Assembly: GCA_041559575.1 (NCBI GenBank)
Contig: JBFFDD010000003.1
Span: 1-38,788, forward strand
Direction: 5' to 3'
DNA length: 38,788 bases
Source: a bacterium
GTDB lineage: Bacteria > BMS3Abin14
Both the position numbers and the translations under genes were made by a program. Below the pieces are notes generated by a model that did not search any database, was not told the DNA's origin, and saw only the letters and a list, made by a program, of their open reading frames with translations. Each line of letters starts with the position of its first letter. Within the stretch, counting starts at the first letter, position 1. Positions 10,237 to 16,401 of the stretch are shown here, one piece after another.

Positions 10237-10616
10237 GATTCCGGTCGCCCGTGACTCGAGTAGTGTTTGTCGATCACCCTTTCCACCTCCGATGTCAGCT
10301 CAGTCAGGTCCGAGGATTTGATCACATAACCATCGGCCAGCCAGGACGAGAAATCCATCTTGTAGCAGCTGTAGACCGAGGAGATGATCACCGGGATATC
10401 GATGTTCTCGGTCGTCATGCCCTGGAGGAGTTCGAGGCCGCTTTCCCCCTCAAGCCTGATGTCGAGGATCATGAGGTGGTAGTCTCCCTCCCGGAGAAGG
10501 CCCATTGTCTCGGTGATGTTCGAAGCCATGTCCACCTTGTAGCCCAGGTCTTCGAGCTCTATTCTGTAGAGGTTCCGGATACCTTCGTCGTCATCTACCA
10601 CGATAATCCTGTGCAT
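10233..10616 (-). CDS. single-domain response regulator (receiver)
   Basis: MHRIIVVDDD..., LDIRL phosphoacceptor, YVIKSS; start moved to ATG 10616 with GGAGG upstream; stop overlaps the next start (ATGA). Confidence 0.9.
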   Translation of the reverse strand: MHRIIVVDDDEGIRNLYRIELEDLGYKVDMASNITETMGLLREGDYHLMILDIRLEGESGLELLQGMTTENIDIPVIISSVYSCYKMDFSSWLADGYVIKSSDLTELTSEVERVIDKHYSSHGRPES

Positions 10617-12024
10617 ATTCCCTCCCTTCCGCTTTGTTAAGCGGAAATTGCACCACCATTCGTCCCTCTTCGTGCCTGAGGGTGATGCCTTCCGCGGCCA
10701 GACGACCGACGATCCTGTCCCACTGGCCTGGAAAGGCGTCAGCGGGCGTGATGGCATCGCCCCCCCCGATAAGGACCTGGACCAGCCCGTCACCGAGGGC
10801 GGTGGTTACCTCCACCTGCATCCCCCGCGGCCGTTCTGCGAGGATGATGCCGAGGAGCCTCAGGAGGATCGATCGGGTGAGATCGTAGTCAAGGAACACA
10901 AGGGGGAGTTCGCCCTCCGTAAGACGGACCGCAGTGCTCTCCATGGGACACGTCTCACGGAACAGCCTGAGGGTTTCCCTGACGAGGTGATTAAGGTCCC
11001 AGAAGTGGCGGGAGGGGTAACTTTCCTCCACCTGCGATATGAAATCCTCGGCGAAGTCCTCGAGGGCGGCAAGGTCGCTGGCGATGGCCTCGGTGAACTC
11101 AACACATGCTGAAGGGTCGTGACGATGCTCCTTCAGGAGTTTAAGGTTTCCCATCATTGAGATAATGGGGTTCTTCACGTTGTGGGCGAGGACGGCAGAG
11201 TACCGGTTCATGAGCATCCTCTTTTCCATGTTGAGGATGGTCTCCCGTTGGGCCTCGATCTTTTCGTGGGCCGCGGTAAGCTCTTGTACCTTTGTTTCGT
11301 ACTGCTCGATGATAATGGACCGTTCCAGGAAGCTGGCAAATGGCTGGATGAAAGCGCTCAGATCAAGGAGGTCCCCTCCGGTGATTCCCTTTCGGGTGAC
11401 GAAGTTGTCCACGATGATCGTCCCGAAATGGCCCCGCTGGCCCCACAGGGGAAGGAACCCCAGGAGGTCGGTTGAAAGGAGGTCGAAAAGCCATTCTCCC
11501 TCGCCACCTAGCGATGCCCTGGACACCACCGCCGGTTCGGGTCCCGAGAGGCCCGCAGTCAGAGGGTCCTCTGTGCCGAAGGTGAACCCAAACCGGTCGA
11601 GGATGGGAGCGAGCCGCTGGTTTTCCTGGAGAAAGTCATCCAGGGCTCTCCTGACCAGGTCCTCGAAACCCAGTTTCTCCTCCTGAATGTGACGCCACCT
11701 GGACAACGCCTCCTCGCGGTCCACTGGACCAATGCCGAATGCTTCCCGGAGGTGTCCGTCGAGGCCCCTGAGGAGTAGGATGGCCCGGTTGTATCCGAAG
11801 AGTTCCCCGGCGGTGATGACGGTAAGCATGAGGGCGGCAACGTGTTCCGGGTCCTGTGACCGGCAGAGGTAGAGGTCTATCTGACGGCGCAGTCCGGCGG
11901 ACCTGAGCAGGTCCTGGTGATCGGCCCACAGCCGGCTCACTCTTTCCAGCAGCTCGGGTGAAAGTTTTTCACCTAGCGGCCCCTTGATAAATTCCCCAAA
12001 ATCCTGGACGGTGGCGCTTTCCAT
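10591..12024 (-). CDS. GAF-domain protein with HisKA-like H-box and degenerate ATP-binding domain
   Basis: GAF-like GYNRAILLL...GTIIVDNFVTRKGI, coiled coil, H-box LAHNVKNPI; ATG 12024 has GGAGGA RBS (track start 12102 lacks one). Confidence 0.75.
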   Translation of the reverse strand: MESATVQDFGEFIKGPLGEKLSPELLERVSRLWADHQDLLRSAGLRRQIDLYLCRSQDPEHVAALMLTVITAGELFGYNRAILLLRGLDGHLREAFGIGPVDREEALSRWRHIQEEKLGFEDLVRRALDDFLQENQRLAPILDRFGFTFGTEDPLTAGLSGPEPAVVSRASLGGEGEWLFDLLSTDLLGFLPLWGQRGHFGTIIVDNFVTRKGITGGDLLDLSAFIQPFASFLERSIIIEQYETKVQELTAAHEKIEAQRETILNMEKRMLMNRYSAVLAHNVKNPIISMMGNLKLLKEHRHDPSACVEFTEAIASDLAALEDFAEDFISQVEESYPSRHFWDLNHLVRETLRLFRETCPMESTAVRLTEGELPLVFLDYDLTRSILLRLLGIILAERPRGMQVEVTTALGDGLVQVLIGGGDAITPADAFPGQWDRIVGRLAAEGITLRHEEGRMVVQFPLNKAEGREYAQDYRGR

Positions 12025-12398
12025 TATTCCTCCGCTTATAAGTCCCAGGGAGCCCTTCTCCCCTTCACCCTGACGGCCGGTGCACAAGTAACATTTTAGC
12101 ATACATCCTTCATTTTCAGTCGTTTGACCACAGGGGTCCTGTTTCCGGTAGCTCCTCTCTCATTTCCCCTGTCCGGCAGTTCTCAACGGACAGAGGGCGG
12201 CGGAGGACACCGGGCTCTCGCCTGAACTGACGTGCCGGAATTCGAAGGGCGGAGACGAAGATCATAATTGATCCCACCCCGGAACAATAATTTTTTATGG
12301 GACCCCTCAAAGCCGGCAGGCAGCGCTATACTTCACCAATGGCGGCACTGAGGCAGCCGATCGCGTGTTTCCAGAGGATTAAAAAAGGAGATGGGCGC

Positions 12399-12926: not shown

Positions 12927-13022
12927 GGAGGATAATCTCGACTTCGGAGCGGTGCCGGGGTCCAGCCGGGCCGCTGCTGGATCAAGGCAATCCCTTGAAG
13001 CAGAGATAAGAACGGCTGAGGT

Positions 13023-13622
13023 TTAAGGTTTCTCACCCCCGGTTGATCCTTTCCGATAAGCCCTCAGGATCGGCCAGGCGATGAGGGTCCCGAGGAGGAA
13101 GGGGAGGGCGATCTGCACCACCATAAGGTTCACGGGCAGGAGGAAAGATGGCGGCGCGTGCTGGGGGTTGCCGGGGAGGGTGCGCACGTAATAGGAGATG
13201 GCGGCCGTCACCCAGGTGAAGGCCCACACTCCGAACATGGCTGGACCCAGCCACCTCCTCTTACGGTAGAGCCCCGCCTTGTCGAAGTAGGAGAGATATG
13301 TCTTCCAGGCGAAGATCGCCACCAGGGGTATCGAGATCCAGGTGTGGATGTTGAAGGACAGGCTGTTCAGCTCCAGGGGAGGGTCGTTGATCCGGATGGC
13401 CGACACCAGGGAGTTAACGCCGTTAAAGAGCCCAAGCAGATAAAGGGTGGTGGCGAAACCGCCGAAGGCCCGGTGAGCCCGGTTCAGGACCCTGTCGGTG
13501 GTCAGCAGGGCGGGTTTGGCGAGGATGTACCCCGTGTAAAACCCGGTGGACATCTGGACGGTGGCACACAGGCATCCGAGAAAGGTAATGATGGTGTTGT
13601 ATTCGGCCAGATCAATGGGCAT
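13023..13622 (-). CDS. multi-pass membrane protein, cytochrome b-like (resembles DUF6529)
   Basis: About five hydrophobic segments; AHRAFG and IHTW His motifs, W-x-T-A-A-x-x-Y pattern. Confidence 0.65.
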   Translation of the reverse strand: MPIDLAEYNTIITFLGCLCATVQMSTGFYTGYILAKPALLTTDRVLNRAHRAFGGFATTLYLLGLFNGVNSLVSAIRINDPPLELNSLSFNIHTWISIPLVAIFAWKTYLSYFDKAGLYRKRRWLGPAMFGVWAFTWVTAAISYYVRTLPGNPQHAPPSFLLPVNLMVVQIALPFLLGTLIAWPILRAYRKGSTGGEKP

Positions 13623-13636
13623 GGTTCTTCAGTTCC

Positions 13637-13662
13637 TGGGGTCGTAGCTTGTATTTTAACAT
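13637..13662 (+). repeat. left terminal inverted repeat (26 bp)
   Basis: Exact reverse complement of 14604-14629. Confidence 0.93.
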
Positions 13663-13749
13663 CTGTATTTTAATTAGTCCTTTTATCTTCTCTTTGGCAA
13701 TATCTTTGCAGCAATTCTTCGACAACCCAAAGGTCGGAGACCTGGAATT

Positions 13750-14610
13750 ATGGCTAGATCACTCAGGGTTCAATATCCAGGAGCAGTTTACCACATTTCG
13801 TCCAGGGGAAATTCCAGACAGGATATCTATCTTGATGAAAAGGACAGGCTTCGGTTTCTGAAATTCCTGGACAGCACCATCAAGCGGTATGGATGGTCCT
13901 GCCATGCCTACTGTCTGATGACCAACCACTTTCACCTTCTTATTGAAACACCAGAACCGAATTTGGCTCCTGGGATGAAAAGACTCAATAGCCGTTATGC
14001 CCTGTCATTTAACAAGAGGCATCAAAGAATTGGTCATGTTCTTCAGGGCCGTTATCATTCCATCGTTGTCGAAAAACACAGCTATCTTTTGGAGTTGTGC
14101 CGGTATGTCGTATTGAATCCGGTTAGGGCGAAGCTTGTGGAGAATCCTGAAGAGTGGTTTTGGAGCAGCTATCGTGCCACGGTTGGGATCATAAGACCCG
14201 AGTCCTTTTTGACCGTTGACTGGATTCTTGGCCAGTTTGCAAAAGGAAAAAGGAACGCAGCGAGATTGTACGCTGATTTTGTCAGGCAGGGATACGATCG
14301 TTCACCGCCCTGGGAGCAGCTCGAAGGGGGTATTTTTCTGGGTGAAGAGGGTTTTGCGCAAACCGTTCGAGAGCAGTTCCTTGTGCGGTCCGATTCAGTT
14401 GCAGTCCCCCGTGTTCAACGAGGTGCAGGAAGACCGTCATTGGAAGACCTGTTCCCGAAATCCATCCTCAAGTGCAAATCCAGAAGGAACAGAAAAATCA
14501 CAGAGGCTTTTGAGTCACATCTGTATACCCAAAGTGAGATAGGCGATAAACTCAGGCTGCATCCAGCATCGATCTCGAGGATTATTAAAGACTGGAAAGG
14601 GAAATGTTAA
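13750..14610 (+). CDS. REP-associated tyrosine transposase-like (Y1/HUH, IS200-related) protein with C-terminal HTH
   Basis: YHISSRGN, HAYCLMTNHFHLL (HUH), GHVLQGRYHS, YVVLNPVRA (catalytic Tyr), WSSY, C-terminal YTQSEIGDKLRLHPASISRII. Confidence 0.92.
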   Translation: MARSLRVQYPGAVYHISSRGNSRQDIYLDEKDRLRFLKFLDSTIKRYGWSCHAYCLMTNHFHLLIETPEPNLAPGMKRLNSRYALSFNKRHQRIGHVLQGRYHSIVVEKHSYLLELCRYVVLNPVRAKLVENPEEWFWSSYRATVGIIRPESFLTVDWILGQFAKGKRNAARLYADFVRQGYDRSPPWEQLEGGIFLGEEGFAQTVREQFLVRSDSVAVPRVQRGAGRPSLEDLFPKSILKCKSRRNRKITEAFESHLYTQSEIGDKLRLHPASISRIIKDWKGKC

Positions 14611-14629
14611 AATACAAGCTACGACCCCA
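14604..14629 (-). repeat. right terminal inverted repeat (26 bp), contains the transposase stop codon
   Basis: Exact reverse complement of 13637-13662; TAA at 14608-14610. Confidence 0.93.
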
Positions 14630-14637
14630 AGAATTAG

Positions 14638-14868
14638 CTACCAGTTCTCAGGCGCCTTGGGAGGGTCGGGCCACTTCTCGGAATCGTACATGTTGTCATC
14701 CCGTTCCCAGCACTCCTTTGAGCAGAAGTGGACCGGCTCGAAAACGCAGCACCAGCCCGAAAAGCTGGTGTCGTAGGGATCCCCATCGATCTTGTGCCCG
14801 CACTGCTCGCACCACAGGTCCACAGTTCCGGTGTTGTTAAGGGTCGATTGCTTGAAGTTCGTTGACAT
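14638..14868 (-). CDS. small Cys-rich protein (TRASH/MYM-like metal-binding motif)
   Basis: 76 aa, CEQC...CC...HFCSKEC; GGAGG RBS 7 nt upstream of ATG; AT-rich upstream region. Confidence 0.7.
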   Translation of the reverse strand: MSTNFKQSTLNNTGTVDLWCEQCGHKIDGDPYDTSFSGWCCVFEPVHFCSKECWERDDNMYDSEKWPDPPKAPENW

Positions 14869-15114
14869 TGCGTCCCTCCCGTTTGATGGTCAAAGCGCAT
14901 ATCACCTTAGATTTAAGTATTATAAATTTAATATAATATGAAAATTCCGTTAAAAGCAAGGGAAAAATATCAGAATTTGCTAATATACCGATGCATCTTC
15001 GGAGGTGAGGATTTTCAAGCGGGCCGGAGTCAGGCGCAGGACCGGAAGCAGCCAGCCGGCTGTGACCAGTCTGTTTGGAACAATACGGGGAGGGTAGAGG
15101 CAGAAGGCAGGTTA

Positions 15115-16401
15115 TTAGGATGTCAGCTGGACCACTTCGGCGGCGGGCTTGATGAAATGCTGGCGCAGGCTCCACGTGTAGGCGCCCTGCCGGGGAAGGA
15201 GGAGGACGTCGCCCGGTTCGATTCCGTCCCCGAAGTAGGACCACCCCCAGACGTCGTGCGGTGTGCACAGAGAGCCGGCGATGAGGCAGGGACGCTCCTC
15301 CAGGGAGGGCCGGCTGAGGTTGATGACCGGCACGTAGTCGGTCTCGTAGCGTTCCCACCCCACGATGTTGGTCCCGGCGTCGGCGATGACCAGGTCGTCG
15401 GCCTTCCGGTCCGCCACACGGATCAGGATGTGCATGGCGTCGTTGACGATCCACCGCCCCGGCTCGGCGTAAACGACAGGGGAGGCGAGGGGGAACACCT
15501 GCTCGTGGAGTGCCCGGGAGATCTCCCGGGCGAAATCGTCGATGGGCGCCGCCTCCAGGCTCCGGTGCCCCCTTAGACTGATAGCATCTTCCGGTGAAGG
15601 TCTTTCCTCTGTCAACAGCCACTCTCCGTCAGAGGGCCAGTAGCCTCCGCCGATGTCCAGGAAGCATAGGGACTCCAGTTGCGTTGGGTCGAGATCCCGC
15701 AGAGCACCCCCAAGGCGGTGGATGAAGCCGACCTGGGCTTCCGGGGTGAGGTTCCAGCTGGTGTGGAACTGGAGGCCTTTAAAAATGATGTTGGGGCAGG
15801 CGGCTGACCGGTCCAAAAAAGATCTCAACCGGGACAGGGGGATACCGAACTTGCGCCACAGACCCTCTTCCTGGGTGGTGAGCCTTACCCCGGCGGTAGC
15901 CGTCACACCAATCCTGCGGGCAGCCTCCTGGAGACCATCCAGTTCGGCGAAACTGTCCATGAGGACAGTAACCCGGTCATGGTGTTCCGCTGCCAGATCG
16001 AGTTCCCGGGCTATCTTGCCGGGGCCGGAGAAGAGGATCCGGCGGCAGCCGGTCTCGAGGGCCATCTTCAGTTCGATGCCGCTGGACACCTCCAGGCCGA
16101 GCCCTGAACGGACAGCCTCGGCCGCCACCAGGGGATGGTTGCTGCACTTAACGGCGAAGAACGCCTCAAAGGCCGGGAGCCGCTCATTGAAAGCGGCGAG
16201 GAAGGAACGGGCCCTGTCCCTCAGGACGGGCGCTTCGAAGAGATAGACGGGTGTTCCCTTTTTGCGGGCCAGTCCCTCCATTTCCCGGGCCCGGTGGAGG
16301 AACCCTCTGACGAGGTCCCTGACCTGGCTCCGGGGTCCCTGGTTCAAGGGCGCTGCGGAGAAAAGAGCGCCCGCGGGATGTTCTTGCGGCACACCGGTCA
16401 T
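15115..16401 (-). CDS. PLP-dependent decarboxylase, diaminopimelate/ornithine decarboxylase (fold type III) family
   Basis: FAVKC (PLP Lys), FSGPGK, KFGI, LDIGGG, EPGR, GSLC..HD, GAY. Confidence 0.88.
   Translation of the reverse strand: MTGVPQEHPAGALFSAAPLNQGPRSQVRDLVRGFLHRAREMEGLARKKGTPVYLFEAPVLRDRARSFLAAFNERLPAFEAFFAVKCSNHPLVAAEAVRSGLGLEVSSGIELKMALETGCRRILFSGPGKIARELDLAAEHHDRVTVLMDSFAELDGLQEAARRIGVTATAGVRLTTQEEGLWRKFGIPLSRLRSFLDRSAACPNIIFKGLQFHTSWNLTPEAQVGFIHRLGGALRDLDPTQLESLCFLDIGGGYWPSDGEWLLTEERPSPEDAISLRGHRSLEAAPIDDFAREISRALHEQVFPLASPVVYAEPGRWIVNDAMHILIRVADRKADDLVIADAGTNIVGWERYETDYVPVINLSRPSLEERPCLIAGSLCTPHDVWGWSYFGDGIEPGDVLLLPRQGAYTWSLRQHFIKPAAEVVQLTS

Follow-up and report, generated by a model that had tools for sequence, protein, structure and literature searches.

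A RAYT-like gene framed by inverted copies of its own dispersed repeat: a probable TIRtron in a BMS3Abin14 genome

The stretch of DNA analysed here (hereafter the window) comprises 38,788 nucleotides (nt), positions 1 to 38,788 of contig JBFFDD010000003.1 in the assembly GCA_041559575.1 of a bacterium of the BMS3Abin14 lineage, and carries at 13637-14629 a 993-bp unit in which a gene for a RAYT-like Y1 protein lies between two terminal inverted repeats (TIRs). We conclude that, taken as a whole, this locus is very probably a TIRtron, a single-copy TIRYT gene together with its cognate repeats, on which the encoded enzyme would act in trans. Two inverted copies of a cognate, non-palindromic repeat of 26-30 nt, called TIR-A, enclose the gene, the product of which is predicted, from its sequence and a structure model, to be a RAYT-like HUH/Y1 single-strand DNA endonuclease/ligase with a C-terminal helix-turn-helix (HTH). 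RAYT-like genes with long flanking TIRs were named TIRYTs, and the units that they form TIRtrons, by Di Nocera, De Gregorio and Rocco (2013, BMC Genomics 14:522; PMC3733652). The window locus is a further example of this class, already named in 2013, the mechanism of which is biochemically uncharacterised as far as our searches show. The features of the locus are as follows.

13633-13662, plus strand: left terminal inverted repeat (TIR-A), exact part 13637-13662
13663-13749, plus strand: spacer from left TIR to start codon, 87 nt, all of its 16-mers unique in the genome
13750-14610, plus strand: TIRYT gene, 286 amino acids (aa) and stop, single copy in the genome
13750-14313, plus strand: predicted HUH/Y1 catalytic domain (aa 1-188), delimited by invariant alignment columns and a structural match
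14434-14607, plus strand: predicted C-terminal HTH domain (aa 229-286), from HTH families and middling structural matches
14604-14633, minus strand: right terminal inverted repeat (TIR-A), exact part 14604-14629

The inverted repeat is exact over 26 nt (13637-13662 on the plus strand, 14604-14629 on the minus strand), as had been stated in a preliminary description of the window made from the sequence alone, with 941 nt between the exact arms; with one mismatch (97%) the arms reach 30 nt, 13633-13662 and 14604-14633. At up to three mismatches, the window has two occurrences of the 25-nt arm core and no more, where 100 shuffles give an expectation of 0.00. The head of TIR-A, GGGGTCGTAGCTTG, points outward and its tail, TATTTTAACAT in the left arm, points inward. 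The right TIR overlaps the last two codons and the stop of the TIRYT gene, whose TAA (14608-14610) lies within the right arm, again in line with the preliminary description. Its view of the ends as terminal inverted repeats rather than subterminal hairpins also held, the arms being non-palindromic and a single arm having no fold of its own (folding energy 0 kcal/mol, z +0.81). It had further noted the absence of a target-site duplication, and no direct repeat was found next to either arm in the window flanks; the flanks that it had chosen, however, belong to the repeat unit (..TTCC and ..AGAA outside the exact arms), so that the boundary was unsuitable for this purpose. Exact genome-wide counts of 16-mers are 1 immediately outside, and up to 26 inside, 13633-13662 and 14604-14633.

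The repeat that frames the gene is a dispersed family of the draft genome to which the window belongs (G000; 401 contigs, 2.9 Mb). A blastn search of this genome with 13600-14670 (1071 nt) returned 51 matches, one of full length and 50 short ones restricted to the arms. By direct scan, the 26-mer has 33 copies at up to four mismatches and 34 at up to five, and the TIR-A 19-mer, at up to two mismatches, has 31, the reversed-pattern controls giving 0. The commonest TIR-A 16-mer occurs 26 times, and only 80 distinct 16-mers of the genome reach 25 occurrences. We call the copies extragenic because the stop-free frames that span them are far shorter than random, with a median of 82 aa versus 386 aa for 500 random 26-nt windows, and a length of at least 150 aa in 8/33 copies versus 87% of the random windows. 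Each of the three TIRYT loci of the genome, in turn, is present once, the next best match to the window's gene having 44% protein identity. Further copies in the genome, envisaged in the preliminary description, are thus found for the repeat arm (33) but not for the gene, and the contrast drawn there with classic RAYTs sitting among multiple REP copies does not stand, since the arm is itself a 33-copy extragenic family and the gene single copy. Arranged by context, the 34 copies consist of the two that flank the gene, 10 in five complete tail-to-tail dimers, two in dimers interrupted by contig ends, one extra copy adjoining a dimer, four in direct groups, seven singles adjoining another repeat, one copy at a contig end, and seven remaining singles. 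Folded in silico, tail-to-tail dimers form 26-bp near-perfect hairpins (-28.8 kcal/mol, z -14.8; -23.3 kcal/mol, z -8.2).

Several observations on the surroundings of these copies stand beside the main finding. The repeat adjoined by the seven singles is about 120 nt long, and its core, AGTCGTAAATTCGAGC, is the commonest 16-mer of the genome (52 copies); the repeat gave more than 100 blastn matches there (72-98% identity), examples outside the window being C76:1281-1400, C94:2745-2966 and C123:5734-5888, and an Rfam search with one copy returned nothing. We considered whether singles followed by 'GGGGTTAAGAGC...' are the ends of a larger element and rejected this, as the inverted TIR-A partner was not found and the adjoining sequence is a separate repeat family. 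Three direct TIR-A copies on C94, spaced by 40 and 71 nt, were likewise rejected as a CRISPR, given the irregular spacing and the dispersed or inverted arrangement of most copies. Rfam searches covering three TIR-containing loci and the neighbouring repeat gave only sub-threshold matches to miRNA hairpins, on the dimers. About 100 nt from one TIR-A dimer (L002:1505-1556) lies a match to the cspA thermoregulator 5' untranslated region (RF01766, 95.6 bits versus a gathering score of 78; L002:1661-2041, minus strand, corresponding to G000:C225). Finally, tandem repeats with a 7-nt period make up 555 of the 1215 arrays reported for the genome by TRF at a score of at least 40 (for example AAACTGG, AATAGAG and AAAGTGG), and several of its top 16-mers are such heptamer arrays; the window has none of them, its three arrays having periods of 12 and 24.

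The three TIRYT loci of the genome each have a separate repeat family. The second intact gene (C183:4479-5327), 44% identical in protein sequence to that of the window, lies in a TIRtron (C183:4362-5378) with its own 25-nt inverted repeat, of which the head is GGGGTCAGGACG and which has 13 copies in the genome. The third locus, C254:2569-3013, is a 445-nt unit with an N-terminal remnant of the gene, in which the first ~55 codons are kept; it is framed by a third repeat type, GGGGTCGGAGCGGG, a 24-nt inverted repeat with three genome copies. Judged from its sequence, this unit looks like an internally deleted TIRtron derivative.

We then extended the comparison to 40 related genomes, 41 with that of the window. 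A TIRYT match is present in 26 of the 41, many of the matches being fragments and broken copies. Twelve of 22 relatives' loci have an inverted repeat of at least 16 nt with a GGGGTC or GGGTC head, two have an 11-nt inverted repeat, a single locus has an unrelated repeat, and in seven the scanned range contains none; one of these seven, L019, is there owing to the partial gene match used in the scan, and its TIRs were found subsequently. The homologue in G001, a genome of the same genus (58% identity), has a perfect 31-nt repeat that differs from TIR-A at 4/23 core positions, and this variant TIR has 16 copies in G001, with 0 for the controls. The overlap of stop codon and right TIR recurs in the same-genus locus L012 (gene end 2364, TIR 2355-2385). 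The spacer between left TIR and start codon, 87 nt in the window, measures 85-96 nt in the closest homologous loci (L010, L012, L017 and L018) versus 20-40 nt in most homologous loci. At up to two mismatches, the TIR-A 19-mer itself has four copies in G011, two of which frame a broken gene with an insertion of ~610 nt, three in G006, beside a C-terminal fragment only, and a single copy in each of G001, G004 and G008; a search of 15 other genomes did not find it, and the controls gave 0. In this small sample of related genomes, then, TIR-A copy number tracks the intact cognate gene (31 copies in G000). The broken TIRtron of G011 is the L019 locus (G011:C5:4470-7940), from another genus of the same family, and has the same TIR-A head as the window over 18-19 nt; its gene is in three pieces, with the ~610-nt insertion between codons 61 and 58-94, and its TIRs, at locus positions 1481 and 2938, are exact despite the decayed gene.

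The association of such genes with inverted repeats extends well beyond these relatives. In a cross-species scan, 80 loci were kept, of which 73 were testable (at least 100 nt on both sides). An inverted repeat of at least 13 nt was found in 64/73, versus 6/73 in the direct-orientation control, and a GGTC-type head was present in 64/64, so the preliminary description's expectation of conserved GGGGTC...GACCCC ends at homologous loci was borne out. The consensus of the 64 loci reads gGGGTCAGGTCTTG.att.T.acattt, its head being conserved across phyla, with the left head in most cases 45-52 nt ahead of the coding match.

The sequence and the predicted structure of the protein both point to a RAYT-like Y1 enzyme extended by a C-terminal HTH, in agreement with the preliminary description. 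Pfam Y1_Tnp matches aa 13-120 of the 286-aa protein (E-value 3.4e-11), and HTH_23 gives a weak match to aa 259-283 (E-value 0.0068, below the Pfam cut-off); the NCBIfam model NF033573 transpos_IS200 was not reached (14.3 bits versus a cut-off of 55). Of the 8000 candidates that were scored, 7761 are homologues at an E-value of at most 0.001; nearly all of the best 120 have a length of ~285 aa, and several are named RayT by one source. In one homologue, P0009 (369 aa), about the first 100 residues of the catalytic domain are duplicated internally, which shows in alignment A1 as a long insertion. The HUH motif is H60-F-H62, the catalytic tyrosine is Y119 within Y119-V-V-L-N123-P124 (Y---NP), and a serine motif reads W138-S-S-Y141. 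In 77 aligned members, H60, H62, Y119, N123, W138 and S140 are invariant, and P124 is conserved in at least 90%. Because none of HUH, Y119, N123 and the serine motif varies among these 77 sequences, we argue that catalysis has been retained. HTH matches at an E-value of at most 0.01 among the 77 family members were to HTH_23 (51), HTH_38 (32) and HTH_28 (11). The AlphaFold2 model of the 286-aa protein has a pLDDT of 87.7, and the best structural match of aa 1-188 is 4er8_A, the E. coli RAYT in complex with a REP hairpin (VIA-align Z 17.1, root-mean-square deviation (rmsd) 2.2 A, 155/165 residues aligned, the next entry having Z 9.5; Foldseek E-value 5.9e-7, TMt 0.75), while the IS608, ISDra2 and IS200 transposases have Foldseek E-values of 2e-4 to 1e-3. 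The match of aa 229-286 to DnaA domain IV (1j1v_A; Z 6.3, rmsd 2.0 A, 58 residues aligned) is middling, as are those to Spo0J/ParB and DeoR/SorC HTH domains. Folded alone, the C-terminal part (pLDDT 83.6) gave no Foldseek match at an E-value of at most 0.001 and local HTH matches of ~40 residues only, and a PDB sequence search with the family profile gave 0 matches at an E-value of at most 0.01. Taken together, the alignment and the model suggest that the enzyme is apparently catalytically intact, with a RAYT fold and an added HTH.

The assignment to the published class rests on a detailed likeness. As reported for TIRtrons, a RAYT-like Y1 gene is framed by long inverted repeats that are not GTAG-type REPs, with a GGGG-W-S-type head and a right repeat over the gene's 3' end, the repeats occur as single, dimeric and grouped copies, and one genome holds several TIRYTs with different TIRs. 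Indeed, Di Nocera et al. (PMC3733652) describe a GGGGWSAS motif in some TIRs, the overlap of TIRs with gene ends, single-copy genes, TIR families that are moderately abundant, in some genomes only, as single, dimeric and grouped copies, and, in genomes with several TIRYTs, different TIRs for each. In the classification of Quentin, Siguier, Chandler and Fichant (2018, BMC Genomics 19:475; PMC6006769), 20 of the 26 TIRYT examples of Di Nocera et al. fall in TnpA_Y1 subclass 2.1, the second largest Y1 subclass (14.9% of strains), which is described there as having a C-terminal HTH (Bac_DnaA_C, HTH_23 or HTH_28), the class 2 Y---NP context and the serine motif, without nearby REP-like hairpins. 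On this published description, the predicted window protein probably belongs to subclass 2.1: it shares the Y---NP context, the serine motif and the long protein with a C-terminal HTH of HTH_23/HTH_28 type, the gene is without adjoining REP-like hairpins, and its distribution is patchy. Unlike in the description, Bac_DnaA_C, among the 25 families listed, matched no member of alignment A2, from which we take this to be a branch with a short version of the HTH, as judged by profile matches. The same subclass corresponds to RAYT group 1 of Bertels et al. 2017, with GGGG[AT][CG]A[CG] inverted repeats (bioRxiv 10.1101/2020.03.09.984088), for which flanking 16-mers have ~12 occurrences (Bertels et al. 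2017, PMC5581495). The preliminary description had spoken of a poorly characterised class, which is right insofar as we found no biochemical work under the names TIRYT and TIRtron, nor any biochemical study of subclass 2.1 among the papers listed from 2018 on, and wrong if taken to mean an unrecognised one, the class having been named in 2013 and placed in subclass 2.1 in 2018.

Two other known systems resemble the locus in part. Classic RAYTs or REPtrons (E. coli TnpA_REP with REP/BIME; Pseudomonas RAYTs with REPINs; Bertels and Rainey 2011; Messing et al. 2012, PDB 4ER8; Corneloup et al. 2021, whose subject is REP-associated enzymes) likewise combine a single-copy HUH/Y1 gene with inverted copies of a dispersed extragenic repeat, have their own repeat family for each paralogue and, in REPINs, form dimer hairpins, and the catalytic domain superposes on 4ER8 as given above. 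They differ in that the window's repeat unit is non-palindromic and folds only as a tail-to-tail pair, that its copies are in the tens and not the hundreds, that the protein has an extra C-terminal region of 100 residues with the HTH, and that the NCBIfam RAYT model stays just under its cut-off. With IS200/IS605 elements the locus shares the predicted HUH/Y1 fold and the absence of a target-site duplication; unlike theirs, its ends are inverted and not asymmetric, lack subterminal hairpins (they fold no better than shuffles), and go with Y---NP instead of Y---Q and with a single-copy gene. The locus does not fit a DDE-type insertion sequence with TIRs, as only Y1_Tnp and HTH families match, the predicted fold is of the HUH type and there is no direct repeat at the ends.

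What is known of movement comes from the neighbourhood of the unit and from public sequencing runs. The position is not conserved, the same-genus homologue having other genes on its two sides. To the left of the unit, a divergent open reading frame (ORF) for a 199-aa membrane protein (13023-13622, minus strand) has its start codon (13622) 10 nt from the left TIR, and this start is conserved in four orthologues. Since the left TIR ends 10 nt upstream of that conserved start, the TIRtron separates the 199-aa gene from its former upstream sequence. Orthologues of the 199-aa gene occur in 4 of the 40 relatives (69-82% identity), and neither a TIRYT nor the 76-aa gene that lies to the right of the unit was found beside them within the 472-1,500 nt fetched upstream; with this query, the gene was not found in G001. 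A clean empty site could not be defined, as the sequences upstream of the four orthologues show no alignment to the window. Neither a second copy of the gene nor an excision joint of the 993-bp unit was found in the genome or in contigs of public runs, among which 13000-15300 is almost identical in 18 runs from at least 13 studies; in one run a 13.4-kb piece spans the locus with 7 differences, and in another two contigs cover it, meeting at the left repeat. Apparent joints at 13656>14605, 13662>14607 and 13663>14606 (in contigs of X1, X4 and X8) were rejected as excision, their sides being only 21-23 nt long and wholly within the repeat, with extra letters between; they are tail-to-tail dimers located at other places of the genome, such as the C33 type. 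The summed contig depth is 153-267 in the left-repeat bin versus 11-14 beside it, an excess that fits a multi-copy repeat and is not a copy number.

We propose that the enzyme acts in trans on TIRs in single-stranded DNA, by analogy with what has been proposed for RAYTs on REP/REPIN. Two inverted TIRs, whether the pair that frames the gene or a tail-to-tail dimer, would snap back in single-stranded DNA into a 26-bp stem, and the HUH/Y1 core would cut and rejoin at the base of this stem, near the conserved GGGGTC head. The HTH may bind the stem or the duplex repeat in a sequence-specific way and, since the left repeat is a short distance upstream of the gene, such binding may also autoregulate the TIRYT gene. 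The tail-to-tail dimer would then be the minimal mobile form, a TIRtron without its interior, and single TIRs would be decayed or one-ended products. A stronger version, in which TIRYTs have a transposition mode of their own, appears rather unlikely to us: any inverted pair of non-palindromic TIRs would be mobile, with the gene-bearing unit as a giant-loop form and the 52-nt dimer as the minimal form, the HTH reading the phylum-wide conserved head GGGGTCAGGTCTTG on the stem and the HUH/Y1 core cutting the stem base.

Several points weigh against the TIRtron reading as set out here. The steps of the mechanism are inferred, and no binding, cleavage or movement was observed; where contigs from two further samples contain the locus, it is intact and unexcised and differs by 6-7 bases. 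At least 14/34 TIR-A copies are singles, unable to form a hairpin alone, and a model based on hairpins only does not explain them. Moreover, the seven singles that adjoin another repeat have a common junction with that unrelated high-copy repeat (91-98% identity over 70-224 nt), and part of the TIR-A copy number may come from duplication of larger segments and not from TIR-specific movement. The window head, GGGGTCGT, agrees with the published GGGGWSAS motif at positions 1-6 and not at positions 7-8, while the head of the C183 paralogue and that of the 64-locus consensus, both GGGGTCAG, fit it fully. The NCBIfam model NF047646 REP_Tyr_transpos is not reached (77.7 bits versus a cut-off of 80). 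Finally, the repeat motif is described as unlike DnaA boxes (PMC6006769), so the HTH may not read the repeat.

Two other explanations have to be weighed against it. In line with the compact mobile unit of the preliminary description, the 993-bp unit could be an autonomous insertion sequence that moves whole, the other repeat copies being its deletion derivatives (miniature inverted-repeat transposable elements). Its compactness and its perfect repeats as bounds would suit such an element, as would the patchy distribution among relatives with many fragments and broken copies, the same-genus homologue between different genes, the four relatives without a TIRYT in the stretch fetched upstream of the 199-aa gene, the deleted derivative at C254, and dimers that resemble the unit without its interior. 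What makes us consider it improbable is the ratio of repeats to gene, ~30 to 1, together with the fact that the three TIRYT loci occur once each, the gene having no further copy at or near 95% identity (the next being the 44% paralogue); in addition, a target-site duplication is absent and an empty site could not be recovered, the two other samples have the locus intact and in place, and the published view is one of single-copy genes with moderately abundant repeat families (PMC3733652).

We give still less credence, and indeed very little, to the explanation in which the repeats are chiefly protein-binding sites or structural sites in RNA or DNA (operators, terminators, mRNA stabilisers), the HTH protein regulating them or its own gene and transposition chemistry being minor now. 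It would account for the conserved HTH, for the position of the left head, in most homologous loci 45-52 nt upstream of the coding match and at a place expected of a promoter or operator, for extragenic copies with strong dimer hairpins, and for a left TIR 10 nt away from the divergent neighbour's start codon. It leaves unexplained the existence of a separate dispersed repeat family for every paralogue, and the invariance of HUH, Y119, N123 and the serine motif in the 77 sequences speaks against it. Nor was a promoter- or terminator-like signal above chance found at the locus: between 13560 and 14700, two sigma-70-like promoters (1.3 expected), none of them within the 87-nt spacer, and two terminators (1.3 expected) were predicted. 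A regulatory role of this kind is nevertheless compatible with the TIRtron reading and not exclusive of it.

The remaining neighbours of the TIRtron can be briefly described. The 76-aa ORF (14638-14868) is on the same strand as the 199-aa ORF, and because of this strand any transcripts running on from it would lie antisense to the TIRYT gene. Further to the right, the ORF at 15115-16401 (minus strand) encodes a protein resembling the pyridoxal phosphate (PLP)-dependent ornithine/diaminopimelate/arginine (Orn/DAP/Arg) decarboxylases (Orn_Arg_deC_N, E-value 3.6e-20), and to the left the ORF at 10591-12102 (minus strand; 503 aa) has a weak HisKA match. Pfam gave no match for the 199-aa, 76-aa and 209-aa ORFs beside the TIRtron.

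For annotation, the lesson of this locus is that 'perfect TIRs' round a Y1 gene should not be taken for a new class of insertion sequence until the repeat has been counted genome-wide. For the family, the locus offers in one genome three enzyme/repeat pairs of unequal copy number, hairpin-forming dimers and an internally deleted derivative, features that, together with a head conserved in 64/73 loci across distant phyla, point to the oligonucleotides and mutants for a first in vitro test. Should TIRYTs have a transposition mode of their own, the three enzyme/repeat pairs, with 31-33, 13 and 3 copies, would constitute a natural system for tests of specificity and co-evolution.

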